Notes under the pieces: generated by a model | Databases searched by the model: none | Told to the model about the DNA's origin: nothing | What the model saw: the letters and a program-made list of their open reading frames with translations, nothing else | From: Oscillospiraceae bacterium | GTDB taxonomy: Bacteria > Bacillota_I > Bacilli_A > RF39 > UBA660 | Reading direction: 5' to 3' | Assembly (NCBI GenBank): GCA_963632935.1 | Contig: CAVGWA010000001.1 | Span: forward strand, 20,216 to 84,215 | Length of the DNA: 64,000 nucleotides | Shown: positions 3,494-63,660 of the stretch, in pieces | How positions within the stretch are numbered: position 1 is the stretch's first letter | Layout of the letters: every line of letters begins with the position of its first letter | Made by a program: the position numbers and the translations under genes

Positions 3494-4147
3494 TTATTCC
3501 TCCTCCACTTCAATAATCGTTGTATCGAAGATTAGTTTATCATTTATTTCATCTATTTGATTTTGTAAATTACCAGCAACGTCTGTTGATAATTGCCCCT
3601 TAACATTATCAAACCACGTAGTAAACCAAATATTGTATTGCTTAAAAATATCTTCAGTAGATAAACTTTGCACTGCTTGCACAACGTTACCACACTCGTC
3701 AGTAAATCTAGTATCAGTTATCTTATCAGTTGTTATTCTCGTAGTTCCAGTTGAAACCGTAATGTTCGCAAGTCTTAAATCATAAATATTTCCACTTCTT
3801 GTTAGTATTGGCTGGCCTGGTGTCGTGGCTGTTTGTCCTTCTAAAATCATTGCAGTAATATTTCTATCACTTAGATTTAATCTCAATATAACCGAATCAA
3901 TTCTATTTAATTCTTTATCTGCCTCGTCTATATCTAAAGTAAGTGATTCTGTATTTTCATAACTATATCCATTAATATTAGCTGTTCCTGCCGCAACAGA
4001 AACAGTCATATTATCGTTTGCACTTACTTTTAAAGAATTATTAAATATTCCATTTGTAAAAAACTTTGATAAAAAATCAGCAACATCACTGGCATCATAA
4101 ACCCTATCATTGTTTACTGAATTAAAGAATCCATATTTTTGTGCCAT
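3494..4147 (-). CDS. hypothetical phage tail/baseplate protein.
   Basis: Position between the Tal-like protein and the tail collar protein. No motif recognised. Confidence 0.35.
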   Translation of the reverse strand: MAQKYGFFNSVNNDRVYDASDVADFLSKFFTNGIFNNSLKVSANDNMTVSVAAGTANINGYSYENTESLTLDIDEADKELNRIDSVILRLNLSDRNITAMILEGQTATTPGQPILTRSGNIYDLRLANITVSTGTTRITTDKITDTRFTDECGNVVQAVQSLSTEDIFKQYNIWFTTWFDNVKGQLSTDVAGNLQNQIDEINDKLIFDTTIIEVEEE

Positions 4148-41454: not shown

Positions 41455-41660
41455 TTATAATTACCGTGAAATGCGAGGAAAGAAAGAACGGTAGGTAACT
41501 TTATAGAGAGTTTATGTTTGGTGGAAATAAACAAGGTGACTATCTTAAATGGCTCTGGAGCAGTCTAACTATGTTAGAACGTAATCACACGTTACGTGTT
41601 TGAGGTAAGTTTTCTTACAAATTAAGGTGGTACCACGTTCAAAACGTCCTTATATATAGG
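41455..41660 (+). promoter_or_regulatory. T-box riboswitch leader upstream of metG.
   Basis: Conserved T-box sequence AAGGTGGTACCACG at ~41626-41639 followed by terminator/antiterminator. Leader about 200 nt. Confidence 0.7.
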
Positions 41661-41687
41661 ATGTTTTTTATTTTGAGGAGGGATATT

Positions 41688-43250
41688 ATGAAACCAAAAT
41701 TTTATATTACAACATCTATATTTTATGCTTCGGCTAAACCACATATTGGAAATACTTATGAGGGTATTTTGACTGATGCGATTGCGAGATATAAACGATT
41801 GATGGGATTTGATGTTAGATTTCACACTGGAACTGATGAACATGGCGAGAAGGTTGAATTAAAAGCAAGGGAAGCTTCTAAGAGTCCTCAAGAATATGTT
41901 GATGAGGTTTCTTTAGAGGTTAAAAGAATTGATGATTTAATGAACATAAGTTATGATAAGTTTGTTAGAACTTCTAATCCACATCATAAGGAAGTTGTTA
42001 GTAAGATTTTTAAGAGATTATATGAAAATGGTGATATTTATAAGGGTAAGTATGAAGGCCTTTATTGTACACCTTGTGAGTCGTTTTTTACTGAAAAGGA
42101 TTTAGTGGACGGAAAATGTCCTGATTGTGGTCGTGATGTTCATAAAACTGAGGAAGAAGCTTACTTTTTGAAATTAAGTAAGTACAATAAATGGCTTGAG
42201 GATTATATTGATTCTCATCCGGATTTTATTAAACCTGAAAGTAGAAAAAATGAAATTGTTAATAATTTTATTAAACCTGGAGTTCAAGATTTATGCATTT
42301 CAAGAACATCTTTTGATTGGGGTGTGAAGGTTCCGTTTGATGAGAAACATGTTATTTATGTTTGGCTGGATGCTTTGGTTAATTATATTACTTTTGTAGG
42401 ATATGATCCTGATAATAAGAGTGATGAATTTGATAAATATTGGCCTGCGGATGTACACATCATTGGTAAGGATATTTTGAGATTTCATACTATTTACTGG
42501 CCTGTAATTTTGAAAGCACTTGATTTACCATTACCAAAATGTATTTTTGGTCATCCTTGGGTATTATCATCTGATAGTGATAAAATGAGTAAATCTAAGG
42601 GAAATGTTTTATATGCGGATAATTTGGCTCGTTTATTTGGTACTGATGCGATTAGATATTATGTTTTGCACGAAATTCCATATGGACATGATGGTAATAT
42701 AGGTTATGAATTGATTATTGATAGAATTAATTCTGATTTAGCAAATACATTAGGAAATTTGGTTAATAGAACAATTAATATGAGTTATAAGTATTTTGAT
42801 GGTATTGTAAGTAATCCTAAGCAATATGAAGATGTTGATAAAGCTTTAATTGAAAGTGCGACTAGTTTAGGTGATAGAATTGATGAAAAGATGAATGATC
42901 TTAAGGTTGCTGATGCGATTGAAGAGATAATGGAATTATACAGACAAAGTAATAAATATATTGATGAAACAACGCCTTGGATTTTAGCTAAGGACGATAG
43001 TAAAAAGGAAAGACTTCAAACTGTTTTATATAATTTACTTGAATCTATTAGAATTGCAAATGTGTATTTGTCTGCTTTTTTACCTGAGACTGCCGAGAAA
43101 ATATTTAAACAATTAAATACTCAAAATAATAGGGTAGAGAGTACTAAAGATTTTAACGGTATGGATGATGGTATTAAGCTAAATGAACCAGAAATTTTAT
43201 TTGCTCGTATTGATAAAAGTGAATTTGAAAAAAAATTGGAAACTATTTAG
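41688..43250 (+). CDS. metG: methionine--tRNA ligase (short form).
   Basis: HIGN (HIGNTYEG) and KMSKS (KMSKSKGN) class-I motifs. Zn knuckle CTPCESFF...CPDCG. RBS GAGGAGGG before ATG at 41688. Confidence 0.9.
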   Translation: MKPKFYITTSIFYASAKPHIGNTYEGILTDAIARYKRLMGFDVRFHTGTDEHGEKVELKAREASKSPQEYVDEVSLEVKRIDDLMNISYDKFVRTSNPHHKEVVSKIFKRLYENGDIYKGKYEGLYCTPCESFFTEKDLVDGKCPDCGRDVHKTEEEAYFLKLSKYNKWLEDYIDSHPDFIKPESRKNEIVNNFIKPGVQDLCISRTSFDWGVKVPFDEKHVIYVWLDALVNYITFVGYDPDNKSDEFDKYWPADVHIIGKDILRFHTIYWPVILKALDLPLPKCIFGHPWVLSSDSDKMSKSKGNVLYADNLARLFGTDAIRYYVLHEIPYGHDGNIGYELIIDRINSDLANTLGNLVNRTINMSYKYFDGIVSNPKQYEDVDKALIESATSLGDRIDEKMNDLKVADAIEEIMELYRQSNKYIDETTPWILAKDDSKKERLQTVLYNLLESIRIANVYLSAFLPETAEKIFKQLNTQNNRVESTKDFNGMDDGIKLNEPEILFARIDKSEFEKKLETI

Positions 43251-50795: not shown

Positions 50796-52547
50796 TTAAT
50801 TATATTCTATTATATCTTCAAAGATTTTATTTATTTTTTCGTTTGAATTTAATTCTTTAAAAATGTCATCAAGTTTAAAATTTTCTTCTTGATAATCGAA
50901 TTTACGTAATTTATTGTTAAATTCTTTTTTTATTATTTCCCATTCATCTACATCGGTTGCTATTAAATTATATTTTTTATTTAAGATTTTTTCAATAGTT
51001 TGTTCAATAATTATTAAATTTTCGTTAAATAATTCTGATAATCTTTTTGTTTTATAGACGAATATTAAATTAGTATCACTGGCTGCTTTTAATGTACCGT
51101 CTAATATGATAGAGGCGGTGTGACTATATTCAGGATTTAAAAGCATATCATTTAATTTTTCAAGTTTTATAATTATAGTTTTTAGATTAGTTTTGTTAAA
51201 TCTTGCTAGTGTATTATCTATTCTTATTTTTTTTATTTCATTTAGCCTTTTATGTAATTTGATTTTTGTGTCATTTGATGGAGCTATTTTTTTTTCATCT
51301 TCTTTATTATCTACTGTTTTTTCTTGAATCGGTTTATTTTGTTGTTCTTTTATGTTTGATTTTTTTGTGTTTTCCACATTTTTTATTTCTTTTTCCTCAC
51401 TTTTGCGGGGGTTTTTTATGTTTTGTTCTAAATTAACTATTTTTTCTGGTGTTTGCTCATTTTTTTGAACACTATTTCTGTTATTTTCTGATATTATTTT
51501 GATTATTGCTAGTTCAAATAGTAATTTGCTATTACTACTGTTTTTCATTTCAAATGAATATTTATTTAAAACTTCTATGTATGAAAATATCTGATTTATA
51601 TTTACTGATTTACTGATTTTTTCATAATTTTCGAGGTTTTGAACTCTTGTTTTAAAATAATTTGGTGCTTCTTTATATAATAATGTATTTCTCATAAAAT
51701 TAATTAATTCTTCTGTTAATTTTATAAAATTTTTACCTTTATCATTATATTCATCTATTTTTTCTAATATTATATTTAATTTGCTATCTAAAATATTTGA
51801 GGTTAATTCCATTAAGTTGGTTTCGGTTAATGTGCCATTGATATCATGAATATCTTTTGTTGTTATTTTTCCTTCAGTATATGATCTTGCTTGATCTAGC
51901 ATACCTACGGAATCTCTCATTCCACCATCTGCTAGATTGGCTATTTCTGTTAATGCTTCTTCATCAATATCAATTTTTTCGCTTTTGGCTATTTTTTTTA
52001 AATTTTTGATTATTGCTTCATTGCTGATTTTTTTAAAGTCTAATCTTTGACATCTTGATAGTATTGTTTCTATGACTTTATGGGGATCTGTTGTTGCTAA
52101 TATGAATATAACGTGTGCTGGTGGTTCTTCTAATGTTTTAAGTAGAGCATTAAAGGCACCTTGGGTTAGCATATGAACTTCGTCGATTATATATATTTTG
52201 TATTTTCCATATGCTGGTAATAGGTTTACTTTGTTTCTTAATTCTCTTATTTCGTCTACACCGTTATTACTTGCGGCATCTATTTCTATTATGTCGCTAT
52301 TATTTGGTTGAGTACAGCTTATGCATTTTCCACATGAATGATAATTTGTTGGATTTTCACAATTTATTATGTTAGCAAATATTTTTGCTACGCTTGTTTT
52401 ACCAGTGCCTCTAGGTCCTGCAAAGAGATATGCATGATTTATTTGGTTATTTCGAATGGAATTTTTTATTATTTTTACTATTATATCTTGTCCCATTACA
52501 TCGTCTAAGGTTTTTGGCCTATATTTTCTATATAGTGCTTGGTACAT
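50796..52547 (-). CDS. dnaX: DNA polymerase III subunits gamma/tau.
   Basis: RPKTLDDVMGQ, GPRGTGKTS Walker A, Zn module C..C..C..C, SRCQ. Confidence 0.9.
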   Translation of the reverse strand: MYQALYRKYRPKTLDDVMGQDIIVKIIKNSIRNNQINHAYLFAGPRGTGKTSVAKIFANIINCENPTNYHSCGKCISCTQPNNSDIIEIDAASNNGVDEIRELRNKVNLLPAYGKYKIYIIDEVHMLTQGAFNALLKTLEEPPAHVIFILATTDPHKVIETILSRCQRLDFKKISNEAIIKNLKKIAKSEKIDIDEEALTEIANLADGGMRDSVGMLDQARSYTEGKITTKDIHDINGTLTETNLMELTSNILDSKLNIILEKIDEYNDKGKNFIKLTEELINFMRNTLLYKEAPNYFKTRVQNLENYEKISKSVNINQIFSYIEVLNKYSFEMKNSSNSKLLFELAIIKIISENNRNSVQKNEQTPEKIVNLEQNIKNPRKSEEKEIKNVENTKKSNIKEQQNKPIQEKTVDNKEDEKKIAPSNDTKIKLHKRLNEIKKIRIDNTLARFNKTNLKTIIIKLEKLNDMLLNPEYSHTASIILDGTLKAASDTNLIFVYKTKRLSELFNENLIIIEQTIEKILNKKYNLIATDVDEWEIIKKEFNNKLRKFDYQEENFKLDDIFKELNSNEKINKIFEDIIEYN

Positions 52548-52609: not shown

Positions 52610-53035
52610 TTATTTTTGACTTGTTTTTTTACTGGCTCTTTTGTTTTTGAAAAATTGTTTTAATAGTTTGGCGGAGTTTTCCACATTTTCTATTTGTATA
52701 AGAGTAGGGAGGGGCATTTTTGATTTTTTTTGCTGGGGTGCATTATAAAATATTTGTTTTATTCTGGCTTGTTTTATTGCTTCAAGGCACATCTGGCATG
52801 GTTCAAGTGTTACATATAATGTGCAATTATCTAAATGCCACGTGTTTTTCTTTTTGCATGCTTTTTTTATTGCATTTATTTCTGCGTGTGCTGTTATATC
52901 TTTTGTTTTTTCACGGGTATTATGTCCTTTTGCAATTATTTTGTCATTTTCTACTATTATGGCACCTATTGGAACATCATCGCTTTTTAAACTTTTTTTT
53001 GCTTCTTTTAATGCTATCTCTATATATTTTTTCAT
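52610..53035 (-). CDS. tadA: tRNA-specific adenosine deaminase. Start likely at MKKYIEIAL; the track ORF to 53065 would overlap the SRP RNA.
   Basis: HAEINAI and PCQMC zinc-binding deaminase motifs. Confidence 0.85.
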   Translation of the reverse strand: MKKYIEIALKEAKKSLKSDDVPIGAIIVENDKIIAKGHNTREKTKDITAHAEINAIKKACKKKNTWHLDNCTLYVTLEPCQMCLEAIKQARIKQIFYNAPQQKKSKMPLPTLIQIENVENSAKLLKQFFKNKRASKKTSQK

Positions 53036-53050
53036 ATCTTCTCCTAAATA

Positions 53051-53132
53051 AAAAGGTACACACAATTAGTGGGCCTTAAGGCTGCTATCTTCCGATTCTG
53101 ACCTGATTCAACCATAATTGTTGTACCTCTTT
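53051..53132 (-). ncRNA. ffs: small-type signal recognition particle RNA (4.5S-like, ~80 nt).
   Basis: Minus-strand sequence AAUCAGGUCAGAAUCGGAAGAUAGCAGCC matches the conserved SRP domain IV (CAGGUCAGGUCCGGAAGGAAGCAGCC). It is closed by a GGUACAACAAUUAUGG/CCACUAAUUGUGUGUACC stem and a U-tract. Conserved location between tadA and upstream genes. Confidence 0.7.
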
Positions 53133-53209
53133 AATAATATAACATTTTTTTCAAAAAATCAACAAATAGTCAACATGTTAATAAGTAGTTTTCCACAGTA
53201 TTTCTTTTT

Positions 53210-53225
53210 TGTTTCACGTGAAACG
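53210..53225. promoter_or_regulatory. parS site 1, TGTTTCACGTGAAACg (15/16 to consensus).
   Basis: Match to ParB/Spo0J binding consensus TGTTNCACGTGAAACA. Confidence 0.75.
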
Positions 53226-53428
53226 TTAGTGTTGTAAACTCCTTTTGTTACTTGTTAATAATGTTGTAAATTATTTTATTTAAACATAATTATCATACTT
53301 TTACATTTTTTCGGTTTGTAATAGTCATTTAAATATGTATATCAATATTTTTTTATTAAAATTAAACATTTCTTGTTAAGAAAATTTATCTTAGTTGATA
53401 TGCATTATCAAGCTTGATGTTTAAACAA

Positions 53429-53444
53429 TGTTTCACGTGAAACA
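53429..53444. promoter_or_regulatory. parS site 2, TGTTTCACGTGAAACA (16/16, within a 20-bp perfect palindrome).
   Basis: Perfect consensus parS. Confidence 0.85.
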
Positions 53445-53705
53445 TTAGTACTGTGGATTATTAATTAATATTTAATATGTTTAATCTTTATTACATTTTC
53501 TGCAAAATCCATATAATTTAGCTATTTTTTATGTAAATTGGTACTAGAATAAGGAAAAATATAATTTTTCTTTTATTTTATTATATTGTTAAAATATTGG
53601 ATTGAATATCTAGTGTAACCTAAGTGTTTTATTCACAATTAAAAATAGATAGAAAATTATTTGTCTTTTTTATATAAATAAAAAACAATTTTATTTTTGA
53701 ATTAA

Positions 53706-53721
53706 TGTTTCACGTGAAACA
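53706..53721. promoter_or_regulatory. parS site 3 (16/16, within a 24-bp perfect palindrome).
   Basis: Perfect consensus parS. Confidence 0.85.
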
Positions 53722-53829
53722 TTAATGCTGTGGATTATTTTTACTATTTAATAGTACTACTGATGGTAGAATAGGAAAATATATTTTTTATGTTTTATAA
53801 TAATAAAATTCACTTGATTTTAACACTAA

Positions 53830-53845
53830 TGTTTCACGTGAAACG
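53830..53845. promoter_or_regulatory. parS site 4 (15/16).
   Basis: Match to parS consensus. Confidence 0.75.
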
Positions 53846-54058
53846 TTAGTGTTGTGAATTCCTTTTGTTACTTGTTAATAATTTTGTAAATTATTTTATT
53901 TAAACATAATAATCATACTTTTACATTTTTTCAGTTTGTAATAGTTATTTAAATATGTATATCAATATTTTTTTATTAAAATCAGACAATTCTTGTTAAG
54001 AAAATTTATCTTAGGTGATATGCGTTATCAAGTTTGATGTTTAAACAATGTTTCACGT

Positions 54059-54074
54059 GAAACATTAGTGCTGT
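54059..54074. promoter_or_regulatory. parS site 5 (16/16).
   Basis: Perfect consensus parS. Confidence 0.85.
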
Positions 54075-54294
54075 GGATTATTAATTAATATTTAATATGT
54101 TTAATCTTTATTATATTTTCTGTAAAATCCATATAGTTTAGCTATTTTTTATGTAAATTGGTACTAGAATAAGGAAAAATATAATTTTTCTTTTATTTTA
54201 TTATATTGTAAAATATTTGGTTGAATATCTAGTATAACCTAAGTGTTTTATTCACAATTAAAAATAGATAGAAAATTATTTATTTTTGAATCAA

Positions 54295-54310
54295 TGTTTC
54301 ACGTGAAACA
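54295..54310. promoter_or_regulatory. parS site 6 (16/16).
   Basis: Perfect consensus parS. Confidence 0.85.
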
Positions 54311-54376
54311 TTAATGCTGTGGATTATTTTTTTGTTTTTAATATAAAAAAGAACGAATATAATATTCGCTCTGCTA

Positions 54377-54392
54377 TGTTTCACGTGAAACA
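54377..54392. promoter_or_regulatory. parS site 7 (16/16), 2 bp beyond the gyrA stop codon.
   Basis: Perfect consensus parS. Confidence 0.85.
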
Positions 54393-54394
54393 TA

Positions 54395-56866
54395 TTAATT
54401 TGTTGATTTAGTTGATTCTTCTTTGATGTCCTCAGTTGGTAATTCTTCTGTATCTTTTTCTAGTAGGGCTATGCTACTCACTTTTTGATTATCCTTTAGA
54501 TTAATTAATCTGACTCCTTGTGCAACTCTTCCGGTTGTTGAAATTTGTTCAATTGGTAATCTAATAATTATTCCACTATCAGTTATAATCATTAAATCTT
54601 CATCCCCATTTACTAGTTTAAATGATACAATATTTCCGTTTTTATCCGTTATATTAAGAGCTTTTACGCCTTTGCTACCTCTATGAGTCATTCGATATTC
54701 ATCAGTATTTGTGCGTTTTCCATAGCCTTTTTCTGTTACAACTAATATTTGTTGATTTGATTGAGCTATTTCACAGCCAACACAGTTTCCATCTCCAAGT
54801 TCAATTCCTTTAACTCCTGAGGCAGTTCTTCCCATGATTCTGATTTCATTTTCATTAAATCTAATCATTCTACCATTTGAAGAAGCTATTATTATTTCAT
54901 TTTCTCCAGTTGTTTTCTTTGCTGATATTAACTCATCTCCGTCTTTTAAATTTATGGCTATTTTACCATTTGATCTTATATTTTCAAATTCACTTAAAGC
55001 GGTTCTTTTTATTAATCCTTTTTGTGTACAAAATACAATATTCTTACATTCTTCTTCATTGCTTACTTTAAGCATTGTTTTTACTATTTCGTCTTTTTCT
55101 AATGGTAATAAGTTAACAATTGGCAAACCTTTTGATTGTCTACTATATTGTGGTATTTCATATCCCTTAACTCTATATACTTTTCCTTTGTTTGTAAAGA
55201 ACATTAAATAATCATGCGTTGTCATTGATAATAATTTTTCCACATAATCATTTTCGTTTGTTGTCATTCCTTTAATTCCAACACCACCACGATTTTGGGT
55301 TTTGTATGTATCTGATGTCATACGCTTAATATAACCTTTATTTGTTAATGTTATAACGATGTTTTCCACAGGTATTAGTGATTCATCTTCTATATAGTCA
55401 ATTGCTGTCATATCAATGTTTGTGCGTCTTTCATCACCATATTTATTTTTGATTTCTAGCATTTCATTTTTAATAATTTCTAATATTTTTTCTTCGGAAG
55501 CTAATATTTCTTTATACATTTTTATTTTTTCTAGCAATTCATTTAATTCTGCTTCTATTTTATCTCTTTCTAAACCTGTTAAACGTCTTAATTTTAATTC
55601 AAGAATGGCTTCTGCTTGAACAAGTGTTAGACTATATTTTGCTGTTAATTTTTCTTTCGCTTCTACATCTGTTTTAGCTTCTTTGATAATTTTGATAAAA
55701 TCATCAATATTATCAAGTGCTATTTTATAACCTTCTAATATGTGAACTCTTTTTTCAGCTTTGTCTAAATCAAATTGTGTTCTTCTTGTAATTACTTCTT
55801 TTTGATGATCAATATATTTTGAAATAATATCTTTTAGTCCTAATGTTCTTGGTGTTTTATTATCTATCATAAGTAGGATAATACTATATGTTGTTTGAAA
55901 TTGTGTATGTTTATATAAATTATTTAAAACAACTTGTGGATTAGCATCTTTTTTCAAAGTAATTGTTATTTTTATACCATTTTTTAGGTCCGTGTGGTAA
56001 TCTGATATACCATCTATTACTTTTGTATGAACAAGTTCTGCAACTTTATTTTTAAGTTCTGATGTGTTTACTCCATATGGTACTTCATCGATTATGATAT
56101 AATGTCTTCCATTTTTTTCTTCGATTGTCGCTTTACTTCTTATTGTTATTGTTCCACGGCCTGTTTCATAGGCTTTTTTTATACCACTATTTCCTAGAAT
56201 TGTTCCACCTGTTGGAAAATCTGGACCTTTTATATACTGCATTAGACCAAGTGTATCAATTTCTGGATTATCTATGTATGCTACACAGCCATCTATTACT
56301 TCACTTAGGTTATGTGGTGGAATATTTGTCGCCATTCCAACTGCAATACCCATTGTTCCATTTACTAATATATTTGGAAAGCGAGAAGGTAGAATTGATG
56401 GTTCTTTTTCTGATTCGTCAAAGTTTGGTTCAAAATCCACAGTATTTTTTTTAATATCTCTTAGTAATTCTAATGATATTTTTGAAAGTCTTGATTCTGT
56501 GTAACGCATTGCTGCCGCACTAGATCCTGCAATATTACCAAAGTTTCCATGTCCATCTACAAGCATGTATCTATAACTAAAGTCTTGAGCCATACGAACC
56601 ATTGCTTCATAAATACTAGAATCTCCATGTGGATGGTATTTACCCATAACATCTCCGACTATACGAGCACTTTTTTTATGTGGTTTATCTGGTGTATATC
56701 CAGATTCATACATTGAATATAATATACGACGATGAACTGGTTTTAAACCATCTCTTAGGTCGGGTAGGGCTCTTGATTTGATAACACTCATGGAATATTC
56801 TATGAATGAGCTTTCTATTTCACTAACGATGTTATTTTCTAATAATCTATCTCTTGTGTGATCCAT
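54395..56866 (-). CDS. gyrA: DNA gyrase subunit A.
   Basis: Active-site region AAMRYTE, QRD region (YHPHGDSS), C-terminal beta-pinwheel repeats. 823 aa. Confidence 0.95.
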
Positions 56867-60057: not shown

Positions 60058-60507
60058 TTATAATTTTCGTTTTTTTAAAACTAATAGTAGTTTTGTTGCC
60101 CTTAGAATTTGATTTTCTAGTGAGGGATATGATATATCAAGGTTTAATTCTGTTCCATTCATGAATGTTATTTTGCTTTGATAATCATTTTTTTCATATT
60201 TTAAAATATTATTTAATGAAATCCAAATGCATTCTTTTATTTCTGGTGAAGTTGTGGGAAAAAATATTATTTCTCTAGTTTCTTCAAGTATTATGGGTAA
60301 TTTGTATTTCATACCTAGTGCATATTTTGATGCTTCATTTCTTCCATTTAAAGTACTTCCATAGTATTTGCAATTATATTTAAGTAATTCCCTCACTGAT
60401 TTGTTTACTATTATTGTTTCATTTCCTGCAATTATTTTTGCTGTATTATTATTTTCTGGCATTATTGCATATGTTTCGCTATTAATCTCATAATTTTTGT
60501 CAAACAT
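60058..60507 (-). CDS. comK: ComK-family protein (competence transcription factor-like). It sits where yaaA (S4-domain RlbA) lies in Bacillus.
   Basis: Collinear motif matches to B. subtilis ComK: YEINSETYAIMPE / YEVNGATIAVLPE; YYGSTLNGR / FFGSSYAGR; IIFFPTTSP...CIWIS / IFLFPTLSS...CGWIS; ITFMNGTELNLDISYPSLENQILRA / VTFSNGKTMELPISYNSFENQVYRT. Confidence 0.55.
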   Translation of the reverse strand: MFDKNYEINSETYAIMPENNNTAKIIAGNETIIVNKSVRELLKYNCKYYGSTLNGRNEASKYALGMKYKLPIILEETREIIFFPTTSPEIKECIWISLNNILKYEKNDYQSKITFMNGTELNLDISYPSLENQILRATKLLLVLKKRKL

Positions 60508-61729: not shown

Positions 61730-61781
61730 AAATTTTCTCCTTTATTTTTTTATTTTTAAATATATTCTTTATTATTGGTGT

Positions 61782-61863
61782 GGAAAAAGTTGATAACTAT
61801 AATTTTCCCTTGAAATATAAAGTTAAATCATTACTTTACACCATGTGGATAAATGTGGAAAAG
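61782..61863. promoter_or_regulatory. DnaA-box cluster between dnaA and dnaN (TGTGGAAAA, TGTGGATAA, TGTGGAAAA) with adjacent AT-rich tract. Downstream part of a bipartite oriC.
   Basis: One perfect and two single-mismatch DnaA boxes seen directly at 61782, 61844, 61855. Confidence 0.6.
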
Positions 61864-61874
61864 AATGTTTTTTT

Positions 61875-63221
61875 TCACTCTTTAATTTGATTTATTATTT
61901 TTGATATTTCTATTTCTAAGTTTTTATCTTTTTTTAGTTCTCTTTTTATTTTTGCAACTGAGTGCATTACTGTAGTATGGTCTTTCCCTCCAAATTCACT
62001 TCCTATTTTTGGTAAAGATTCTTTTAGATGTATCCTACATATATACATTCCTATTTGTCTTGGTACTGCTATTTTAGATAATCTTTTTTTAGATTTTATA
62101 TCTTCCACAGTTATATTGTAATTATTTGCGACTAGTTGTATTACTTGATCTATTTTATTTCTTGATATTATATTTTTTCCAATATAGTCTTTTAAAGCTT
62201 CTACAGCAAGTTCTAGGGTTATTTCAGAACCATTCATTATTGTGGCGTATGCTAATACGCGGGTTAAAGCACCTTCTAATTTTCTTATGTCAGTTGTGCA
62301 GTTGTTAGCAATATATTCTTTAACTTCCATTGGTACAAAGCTTTTCATATCATGTGCTTCTATTTTTTTATCTAATATTGCTAATCTTAGGTTTAATTCG
62401 GGTGGTAATATGTCTATGGTTAATCCCCAGTTAAATCTGGTTCTTAATCTTTCTTCTAGTTTTTTTAAGTCATCTGGTGATCTATCTGATGAAATAATTA
62501 TTTGTTTATTGTTTGTGTGTAAATCATTGAATGTGTTGAAAAATTCTTGTTGTGTTTTGCTGGCAATTTCTAAATATTGTATATCATCTATCATTAAAAC
62601 ATCAATGTCACGGTATTTTCTTTTAAAGTTATCCACAGCCTTGAAATTACTAGTTTCATTTTTTCTATATATATTAAGAAAGTCGTCTACAAATTTTTCA
62701 CTAGTAACATATAGAACTTTTTTATTAGATGTTGAAACGATGTAATTTCCTATGGCGTGCATAAGATGTGTTTTTCCTAGACCGCTTGAGCCATATATAA
62801 ATAGTGGATTATACATAGCACCTGGTTTTTCAGCAACTGCTAGCCCTATAGCTTTAGCAAATTTATTACTTTCTCCAGATATAAAATTATCAAATGTGTA
62901 TTTACTATCTAGTCCACTTTCAAATACTGCTTCATTGTTTTCTTCATTTTCTTCATTTGGTTCAATATTGTTTATTTCATTAGGTGTTACATATTTAAAT
63001 TTAAAAATTGAGCCAGTTACTTCCATAAATGTTTCTTTGATAATTTCTCCATAATTTTCTTTTAAATGTTTTTTATGTACATCTAATGGAACTTCAATTA
63101 TTGCATATTCATTATTTAAATCTATTAATTTTGTATCTTTAAACCATGTTTGAAACAAAACAGGTTTTAATTTTATTTCCATTTTAGATAAAAAAACGGT
63201 CCACATGCTTTCTAAATCCAT
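61875..63221 (-). CDS. dnaA: chromosomal replication initiator DnaA.
   Basis: AAA+ Walker A GSSGLGKTHL. Domain IV DnaA signature (basic-loop and HTH region). 448 aa. Confidence 0.95.
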   Translation of the reverse strand: MDLESMWTVFLSKMEIKLKPVLFQTWFKDTKLIDLNNEYAIIEVPLDVHKKHLKENYGEIIKETFMEVTGSIFKFKYVTPNEINNIEPNEENEENNEAVFESGLDSKYTFDNFISGESNKFAKAIGLAVAEKPGAMYNPLFIYGSSGLGKTHLMHAIGNYIVSTSNKKVLYVTSEKFVDDFLNIYRKNETSNFKAVDNFKRKYRDIDVLMIDDIQYLEIASKTQQEFFNTFNDLHTNNKQIIISSDRSPDDLKKLEERLRTRFNWGLTIDILPPELNLRLAILDKKIEAHDMKSFVPMEVKEYIANNCTTDIRKLEGALTRVLAYATIMNGSEITLELAVEALKDYIGKNIISRNKIDQVIQLVANNYNITVEDIKSKKRLSKIAVPRQIGMYICRIHLKESLPKIGSEFGGKDHTTVMHSVAKIKRELKKDKNLEIEISKIINQIKE

Positions 63222-63224
63222 ATT

Positions 63225-63660
63225 ATCCCCCCATATGTGTTTTTTTGAACATCCATTTCCATTTTACATTATTTTTACATTTTTTTCTATAAAAACTGTG
63301 GAAAATAGGTAAAAAAGTTTTAAACATGATTTTATTGTCGAAAAATATCGGTTTATAGTAGATATGCACATATTGTGTGGATAAATAAATTTGCACATTT
63401 GTTGATAAATTATAATTATTCACATATGTTGAAAAGTAGAAAATTGTCTTTTTTATTGACAATTTTTTTGTGTGGAAAATAAAAAAATATAAAACTTAAA
63501 AATTTTATACTGTGGAAAACTCAATATTTGCATTTGGGTTTTATTTGTGTTATAATGCATGTGTTTTTTTTAATTAAATTTTGTTTTAATAAATTGACAT
63601 TTGATTGTTTTATCTATATAATTTATTAAGCAATGTGATTTTTATTTAGGAGGTGGATTT
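63225..63660. promoter_or_regulatory. oriC upstream part / dnaA promoter region with DnaA boxes and an AT-rich tract.
   Basis: DnaA boxes at 63297-63305 (TGTGGAAAA), 63376-63384 (TGTGGATAA, perfect), 63471-63479 and 63511-63519 (TGTGGAAAA), 63416-63424 (TTATTCACA). Very AT-rich stretch 63540-63620. Divergent dnaA and rpmH. Confidence 0.75.

Follow-up and report, generated by a model that had tools for sequence, protein, structure and literature searches.

What could seven parS sites, the 16-bp palindromes recognised by ParB/Spo0J proteins, be doing side by side in one short spacer behind gyrA? The question is raised by a 64-kb window (64,000 nucleotides of contig CAVGWA010000001.1, assembly GCA_963632935.1) from an Oscillospiraceae bacterium, a member of a lineage of uncultured, low-GC gut Bacilli whose metagenome-assembled genomes (MAGs) are labelled Bacilli, Tenericutes or Mollicutes. 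The sites occupy the spacer between gyrA and the gene for the small signal recognition particle (SRP) RNA, 7.4-10 kb from dnaA and the DnaA-box clusters, and are thus origin-proximal. We consider it probable (about 0.7) that this array is a centromere-like ParB loading hub near the origin, bound by a canonical, parS-specific ParB that is predicted to lie elsewhere in the genome. On the sequence evidence such a reading appears well supported for the sites and incomplete for the protein.

A search of the window with the pattern TGTTTCACGTGAAACA, allowing up to two mismatches, returned seven matches, all within 53210-54392, against a chance expectation of 0.01; no shuffled sequence reached seven. 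Five are exact and the other two share a single substitution (A16 to G). They match the full parS consensus, the 16-bp palindrome TGTTNCACGTGAAACA, and the bases that discriminate parS, G1 and A6, are present in 14 of 14 half-sites. With a degenerate form of the consensus and up to three mismatches, nothing better than two mismatches was found in the window outside the array, and over the roughly 80 kb of the source genome covered the array sites are the only parS sites. A preliminary description of this DNA had reported five exact and two one-mismatch sites in 1.2 kb, and our search recovers them at the same coordinates. The sites and the two repeat copies are:

53210..53225, unstranded, parS 1 (TGTTTCACGTGAAACG, one mismatch), first site of repeat copy 1, adjoining the SRP-RNA promoter region
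53429..53444, unstranded, parS 2 (exact), within a 20-bp palindrome, with TGTGGATTA 7 nt further on
53706..53721, unstranded, parS 3 (exact), within a 26-bp palindrome (window 53701-53726), followed by TGTGGATTA
53830..53845, unstranded, parS 4 (one mismatch), first site of repeat copy 2, in a 28-bp palindrome with one central mismatch
54049..54064, unstranded, parS 5 (exact), followed by TGTGGATTA
54295..54310, unstranded, parS 6 (exact), followed by TGTGGATTA
54377..54392, unstranded, parS 7 (exact), past the gyrA stop codon but ahead of the gyrA terminator and so inside the gyrA 3' untranslated region
53210..53829, plus strand, repeat copy 1, 620 nt, three parS
53830..54335, plus strand, repeat copy 2, truncated, about 506 nt, three parS, 94-95% identical to copy 1

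The spacing between sites is 82-277 nt, and the seventh begins 3 nt past the gyrA stop codon, abutting it as had been claimed. From parS 1 to parS 7 the palindromes measure 14, 20, 26, 14 (28 with one central mismatch), 20, 20 and 20 bp, so that the earlier figure of 18-24 bp was roughly right, the true range being 14-26 bp, or 28 bp if the central mismatch is allowed.

The array is built on a direct duplication. Positions 53210-53509 and 53830-54129 are 95% identical with a period of 620 nt, and the similarity resumes at 53590-53668 and 54209-54287 (94% identity); the second copy is truncated and has a deletion of about 31 nt. Since the period exceeds 500 nt the repeat is missed by Tandem Repeats Finder, but comparison of the copies agrees with the duplication proposed in the preliminary description (53210-53721 and 53830-54310, three sites per copy). 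The head-to-tail direct repeats carrying sites that typify sopC-like centromeres are therefore present, here in the form of a 620-nt unit that is present twice and bears three sites each time. The region is also free of open reading frames (ORFs), as first described, with none of at least 40 amino acids in 53137-54394. Promoters and small RNAs in the spacer were considered and rejected: promoter-like matches number 16 against 14.8 in shuffled sequences, which is no excess, and an Rfam scan of the spacer region gave the SRP RNA as the sole family, the sub-threshold microRNA matches being the palindromes themselves. Besides parS, the window contains no other recurring GC-containing palindrome that might be a Noc-type target.

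Comparison between species separates the site from its surroundings. Between the window and a sibling species whose genes are 83% identical at the nucleotide level, blastn finds no match in the spacer, yet the parS modules are retained. Among 121 parS sites with distinct flanks, positions -1 and +1 are A and T in 117, indicating that the unit is an 18-bp palindrome (A-TGTTTCACGTGAAACA-T), and the core varies at its outermost bases and otherwise just at positions 5 and 12, where the consensus is known to be degenerate. Only this 18-bp palindrome is conserved; the flanking DNA is not. With the full 16-bp consensus, invariant discriminating bases and variation confined to the known degenerate position, the view that these are genuine parS sites gains support. 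Many of them lie at the centre of longer perfect palindromes, the outer arms of which are not alike between sites and resemble covarying flanks. The mean palindrome extension over the 121 sites is 2.47 nt compared with 1.61 ± 0.08 nt in a flank-shuffling null, an excess of more than 10 standard deviations; in 23 sites the extension is at least 5 nt, and it reaches 13 extra nt per arm. Long examples are found at L023:3572-3605 and 3665-3698, L006:12513-12544 (the prefix L denotes loci fetched for comparison) and window 53701-53726. The extended palindromes could reflect selection for hairpins or cruciforms, or quasi-palindrome correction by template switching.

The place of the array after gyrA is conserved well beyond the species. 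In a set of 29 GTDB species representatives with GyrA 62-79% identical to that of the window, 23 have at least three parS sites (three to ten) in the first 2 kb or so beyond the gyrA stop; of the other 6 contigs, 3 run out less than 300 nt past gyrA. In more distant Bacillales there is essentially no parS right after gyrA, and a few Erysipelotrichaceae have 1-3 sites 1.7-3.9 kb after it. Conservation of position across so deep a lineage upholds the treatment of the array as a real locus. The number of sites is far less constant. Sibling species L083 has at least four, L113 and L114 (DnaA 82% identical) have 7-8, and Candidatus Coprosoma, which is close to the window (DnaA 88% identical), has 13-14 in 2-2.4 kb, including on a 1.37-Mb contig. 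In ten conspecific contigs (DnaA 99% identical) gyrA and tadA are 555-1721 nt apart, with 3-9 sites between them. Copy number is polymorphic between strains, then, and the between-genome variation that the preliminary description had suggested looking for is found, with the qualification that the exact number in any single short-read assembly is uncertain.

The repeats also leave their mark on the assemblies. In GCA_963659735.1, which is the window's species (99.5% identity over 9.8 kb), contigs approaching from either side end within the array, Logan contigs likewise, and short reads therefore leave the repeat unresolved. Short-read assemblies of the species break in or at the edges of the array (L001, L082, which ends at window 54212, and L090-L092). 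As a practical consequence, the origin region of these gut MAGs is systematically fragmented at the array in short-read assemblies.

The most interesting point concerns the proteins, for in the window's clade sites and protein do not correspond: the sites are of parS type, the protein of Noc type. A single ParB-family gene was found near oriC in the window's species, and likewise in each of four sibling species. In the source genome it encodes P0108, a 696-residue protein, in the order gidA-gidB-P0108-dapF:

L098:3479-5569 (source-genome contig CAVKUP010000012.1), P0108 gene

Orthologues of 540-690 amino acids occupy the same place in sibling species (e.g. L083:16926-18608 and L112:885-2762). 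P0108 has ParB_N and HTH_ParB domains in which the CTPase motifs FQPR, GERRFKAS and ENVQRQ are kept, and a low-complexity linker of 300-450 amino acids ahead of a short C-terminal domain; it is to this linker that the proteins of the clade owe their length of 540-700 amino acids. Its best PDB and NCBIfam matches are to Noc and not to Spo0J, although the score of 256 bits against NCBIfam nucleoid_noc lies below the curated cut-off of 315. Noc needs an N-terminal amphipathic membrane-targeting helix (PMC8429893), and none is seen in P0108, whose N-terminus is MQENGKLTVL and whose ParB_N domain begins at residue 7. The ParA-stimulating N-peptide is likewise absent from the Noc-type protein of this clade. 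At the four specificity positions (173, 179, 184 and 201 in Caulobacter numbering) parS-type proteins have RTAG and proteins specific for Noc-binding sites (NBS) have QKKR; scanning mutagenesis showed that the set Q173/K179/R201 specifies NBS, parS binders having an invariant R173 (PMC7383237). P0108 has Q-K-N-R, and Q173/K179/R201, i.e. Q-K-(N/S)-R, is found in 120 of 120 P0108 homologues among the matches listed. By the published residues P0108 is therefore predicted to be an NBS-type and not a parS-type binder.

Searches with tblastn and phmmer, in which B. subtilis Spo0J, Soj and a Noc-type N-terminus served as queries against the window and all fetched loci, revealed no ParB-family ORF besides the gidB-adjacent Noc-type gene, and with tblastn Soj-like matches came up in just two loci (L070 and L075), both of distant Bacilli. 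In the window's clade neither a ParA nor a second ParB was found within 10 kb of the P0108-type gene, and in the more than 150 loci searched no array has a parA or parB ORF closer than 10 kb, so that the operon of a sopC-like system is missing. The classical order gidB-noc-soj-spo0J is seen at L235:1-2724, in the species whose arrays consist of 125-bp units with both parS and NBS (L009/L235). There, the products after gidB are a Noc-type protein of 473 amino acids (QKAR), a ParA of 257 and a ParB of 295, the last with an N-terminal ParA-stimulating RALGKGL motif. Where L235 has soj-spo0J, the window's clade has dapF directly after the Noc-type gene, and from this gene order the clade appears to have lost soj-spo0J from the gidB-noc locus. 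In L113 and L114 the gene after gidB encodes a 304-residue protein with no Pfam hit and no ParB similarity (L113:1-600, L114:1-599), while the array of 7-8 sites is intact; parS arrays therefore persist without a Noc-type gene at this locus. Two further features of the gidB neighbourhood may be recorded. A cassette encoding TetR, ABC-ATPase, FtsX-permease and prepilin-type (N_methyl) proteins lies between trmE and gidA in the window's species (L087/L101:1337-5507) and is absent from L083, and the gene for a 2366-residue protein with no Pfam hit (L098:10154-15569) is found some 4.6 kb downstream of the Noc-type gene in the source genome.

No match to the NBS (ATTTCCCGGGAAAT) with up to three mismatches occurs in the 64-kb window, and other loci of the clade have none with up to two, the exceptions being two degenerate NBS-like sites of a sibling species (L093/L095). 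One degenerate NBS-like site in a sibling species, TATTTCCCGAAAAATA (L095:9947-9962), is about 40 nt upstream of the Noc-type gene, and its counterpart in the window's species has decayed to TATTTTTAAAAATA (L098:3425-3440). Exact NBS 16-mers are present in 21 of the 29 distant relatives, and more distant relatives have about one NBS per 10 kb in addition to arrays. In five loci parS strictly alternates with exact NBS (TATTTCCCGGGAAATA), one of each per tandem unit:

L009:12471-13170, parS+NBS array, 125-bp unit
L015:3818-4307, parS+NBS array, 64-bp unit
L021:13107-13747, parS+NBS array, 82-bp unit
L024:12638-13476, parS+NBS array, 118-bp unit
L028:2843-3183, parS+NBS array, about 73-bp unit

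In the literature searched no description of interleaved parS/NBS arrays was found. An unconditioned scan of metagenome contigs for parS followed by NBS within 16-46 nt gave at least 120 contigs, and among the matches listed 116 of 120 are the gyrA-tadA-dnaX locus of genomes with 19-35% GC. The two kinds of half-site are told apart by positions 1 and 6, at which parS has G and A and NBS has A and C (PMC7383237). A census of half-sites over 1.4 Mb counted 1020 of parS type (GA) and 713 of NBS type (AC), with hybrid classes of at most 11 and one mixed site; so sharply bimodal a distribution implies two distinct binders.

A further motif is embedded in the array. The sequence CTGTGGATTA follows four of the parS sites, at 53452, 53729, 54072 and 54318, and the DnaA-box-like motifs in and beside the repeats are:

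53452..53460, minus strand, DnaA-box-like TAATCCACA (one mismatch), 7 nt from parS, with identical copies at 53729-53737, 54072-54080 and 54318-54326
53189..53197, plus strand, DnaA-box-like TTTTCCACA, 12 nt before parS 1, a variant occurring three times in the window's oriC
53629-53637 and 54248-54256, DnaA-box-like TTATTCACA, one mismatch

The 1258-nt spacer holds seven boxes within one mismatch of TTATCCACA compared with 0.47 in dinucleotide shuffles, 0 of 500 of which had as many. There is thus a cluster of several boxes outside oriC, none of them exact and four of them copies of one module. The DnaA-box-like 9-mer noted after four sites in the preliminary description is real, and DnaA boxes recur beside parS in several species; the point is qualified by the one mismatch in every box of the window's array and by the single duplicated module behind the four. 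The arrays of L083 (3 boxes against 0.22 in shuffles), Coprosoma (L112; 5 against 0.69, one exact) and L013 (7 against 0.49, three exact) are similarly enriched, as are those of L005 and L026; exact TTATCCACA occurs in L112, L005, L012 and L013. The strict parS+NBS tandem arrays of L009, L015 and L021 have no DnaA boxes. The boxes are thus a third module of the repeat, and one that is optional. A composite site with fixed parS-to-box spacing was rejected, both spacing and orientation relative to parS varying between species. In B. subtilis, oriC-proximal DnaA-box clusters and Spo0J synergistically restrain initiation (PMC3245932), and by analogy it is plausible that the array boxes hold DnaA near the centromere.

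Several observations weigh against a hub for a ParB encoded elsewhere. The sole ParB-family protein found near oriC in the window's species is of the Noc type, and neither a canonical ParB (R173/G201 type) nor a ParA was found for the window's genome or clade in the region inspected, which extends about 22 kb from oriC in one direction and about 62 kb in the opposite one. The count of parS sites spans about 80 kb of the source genome, so that the array is no more than a candidate 'principal' loading site, and short-read collapse of repeats may distort the copy numbers. It had been stated at the outset that a genome with no ParB/Spo0J homologue would tell against a ParB-binding array; a homologue does exist in P0108, but of Noc type, and a canonical ParB was not found around oriC. 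Might P0108 itself then bind parS, having taken over its recognition after the loss of soj-spo0J to serve as the centromere and condensin-loading protein? Its position as sole ParB-family gene near oriC in five species, its preserved CTPase motifs and its want of a Noc membrane-targeting helix would suit such a role, as would the virtual disappearance of NBS from the clade (none in the window, two degenerate sites elsewhere), unlike the distant relatives with their regular NBS and arrays. We nevertheless judge this unlikely: the residues that specify NBS in mutagenesis are unvaried in all the P0108 homologues among the matches listed, the recognition helix is essentially that of the L235 Noc, a protein of a relative that also has NBS sites and a distinct ParB, and L113 and L114 keep a parS array without a P0108-type gene at the gidB locus. 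Given the separate Noc and ParB of L235, the bimodal half-sites and the perfect parS kept in the window's clade, a parS-specific ParB encoded elsewhere is the most economical reading.

The array might instead be primarily a DnaA-box cluster, of the B. subtilis or datA kind, that titrates DnaA and carries parS sites as secondary passengers of the repeat. The sevenfold occurrence of boxes where shuffles give 0.47, the enrichment and exact boxes in relatives and the joint action of box clusters and Spo0J in B. subtilis all lend this some attraction. Yet no box in the window's array is exact, the four beside parS derive from one duplicated module, their spacing and orientation relative to parS differ between species, and in the box-free arrays of L009, L015 and L021 it is parS that is the constant element, which makes the proposal quite improbable. 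Less probable still is that the palindromes have no connection with ParB, whether as repetitive extragenic palindromic (REP) or miniature inverted-repeat transposable element (MITE) sequences, bidirectional terminators or a CRISPR-like array, or that they are an artefact of assembly. The long palindromes with site-specific outer arms (mean extension above the null, at least 5 nt in 23 of 121) and the breaking of short-read assemblies at the array speak for such explanations. However, the core agrees with the ParB consensus at all 16 positions, varying only at the known degenerate one, the motif is restricted to one locus in 64 kb, and the sole terminator-like site is that of gyrA; MITE, REP-like and terminator readings were rejected on these grounds. 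A CRISPR array was rejected because the DNA between sites is itself repeated and not unique, at a spacing of 82-277 nt, with no cas-like ORFs nearby, and an assembly artefact because independent assemblies, including long-read-style contigs, span comparable arrays.

If the array is indeed a ParB loading hub, the seven 18-bp palindromes would be loading sites for a predicted parS-specific ParB/Spo0J CTP clamp. From established ParB biology, each parS would nucleate ParB dimers that close on CTP and slide outwards, and seven sites in 1.2 kb would act as one very strong loading point. The resulting single ParB-DNA complex, 7-10 kb from oriC, may recruit the structural maintenance of chromosomes (SMC) condensin and organise or segregate the origin; with no ParA near the origin in the window's clade, condensin loading is the likely role and not ParA-driven transport. 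Growth and shrinkage of the array through unequal recombination or slippage between repeats would explain the 3-9 sites among strains and the 13-14 in the neighbouring genus. The ancestral state of the lineage was probably gidB-noc-soj-spo0J together with arrays mixing parS and Noc sites. The window's clade would since have lost soj-spo0J from the locus and Noc sites from the array, while keeping parS and either gaining or keeping DnaA-box-like motifs, which may additionally hold DnaA near the origin. More tentatively, and with less confidence than in the ParB hub itself, the gyrA-tadA spacer can be imagined as a modular, fast-evolving origin-organising hub in which the sites where two paralogous CTP clamps load (parS for ParB, NBS for Noc) multiply together with DnaA boxes as parts of one tandem unit, and so bring proteins of segregation, of nucleoid-occlusion type and of initiation to a single point. 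In the window's clade the hub would then have been re-tooled to parS and DnaA boxes. Over the same period soj-spo0J would have gone from the noc locus, and the Noc-type protein, possibly now serving the centromere, would have given up its membrane helix and acquired a disordered linker of 300-450 amino acids.

Origin-proximal parS clusters as such are already known. B. subtilis has 8 origin-proximal sites, C. glutamicum 10 in 35 kb, and S. coelicolor and Listeria innocua 20-23. The window's array shares with these the identical 16-bp consensus, an origin-proximal and mostly intergenic location, the multiplicity of sites and, by analogy, an expected role in ParB nucleation and SMC loading. It differs in its density (about 6 sites/kb against about 0.3/kb in C. 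glutamicum), in the placing of sites on tandem direct repeats, in rapid copy-number turnover, in its fixed place after gyrA and in having no parAB genes near it, the cognate ParB not having been found around oriC; the co-amplification of NBS in relatives is a further difference. The centromere sopC of plasmid F is made up of 43-bp units, 12 of them in tandem, and every unit contains a 16-bp inverted repeat. The likeness to a plasmid-style centromere remarked on earlier is apt, both having head-to-tail units that carry palindromic ParB-family sites in variable copy number, one site per unit in sopC as in the relatives' single-site units of 44, 64, 82, 118 and 125 bp. Unlike sopC, the window's array is chromosomal, has canonical chromosomal parS, has no adjacent par operon and is built on a long unit (620 nt, three sites), and units in relatives carry NBS as a second site type.

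With the Noc-NBS system of Bacilli the lineage has in common exact NBS 16-mers and a Noc-type paralogue at the gidB-noc position, with Q173/K179/R201 and nucleoid_noc as its best NCBIfam match. The differences are that the window is without NBS, that P0108 falls short of the Noc cut-off (256 against 315 bits), and that the NBS of relatives are stacked in origin-proximal arrays interleaved with parS and not scattered chromosome-wide. The absence of a ParA gene near the origin in the window's clade recalls the ParA-less ParB-parS-SMC systems of Streptococcus pneumoniae and Staphylococcus aureus, where, however, a few dispersed parS sites are served by an identified ParB, whereas in the window the sites are massed at one point. 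As in the DnaA-box clusters of B. subtilis and in E. coli datA, DnaA-box-like 9-mers are clustered a few kb from oriC, but those of the window are all one-mismatch, are embedded in a parS repeat and are absent from the arrays of many relatives.

The reasons for which bacteria retain several parS sites, and for which these cluster, are named as an open question in the field's review. This lineage is an extreme natural case, with up to 14 canonical parS in 1-2.4 kb at a fixed locus, and it offers both copy-number variation between strains and sister lineages whose repeats also carry Noc sites or DnaA boxes. Through it one could test whether the number of sites determines how large the ParB complex becomes, whether the clamps of ParB and Noc help or hinder each other when they share DNA, and whether DnaA is sequestered at a centromere.

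The array is set among the following genes and signals:

54395..56866, minus strand, gyrA (823 amino acids), upstream boundary of the array
54350..54372, minus strand, gyrA intrinsic terminator, a 10-bp stem followed by a T run
53043..53136, minus strand, small SRP RNA gene (Rfam, 59 bits), downstream boundary of the array
52610-53035, minus strand, tadA, next after the SRP RNA
50796-52547, minus strand, dnaX, next after tadA
61779..63519, unstranded, bipartite oriC flanking dnaA, with DnaA-box clusters at 61779-61862 and 63297-63519
61875-63221, minus strand, dnaA, start at 63221

On the minus strand the order is dnaA, dnaN, a ComK-family ORF, recF, gyrB, gyrA, the array, SRP RNA, tadA, dnaX, ybaB and recR. 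DnaA boxes are clustered both between dnaA and dnaN and upstream of dnaA, and the strand of the genes switches at rpmH (63662); oriC is therefore placed on both flanks of dnaA. The distance of about 9 kb from dnaA originally given for the array is confirmed, the dnaA start at 63221 being 8.8-10 kb away. The locus had also been called remodelled. It does differ from the gene order of Bacillus as generally known, against which that judgement was made, but the arrangement is an old, lineage-wide one and not the product of a recent event.

Two minor features of the window deserve mention. The ComK-family ORF between dnaN and recF (149 amino acids, window 60058-60507, minus strand; Pfam ComK E = 8e-40) has no matching NCBIfam model and is kept in this position throughout the lineage (L083, L101-L114, L235). 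A T-box leader (window 41467-41654, plus strand; Rfam, 109 bits) lies upstream of a 529-residue ORF (41661-43250), the L090 homologue of which matches class-I aminoacyl-tRNA synthetase (tRNA-synt_1g) families.

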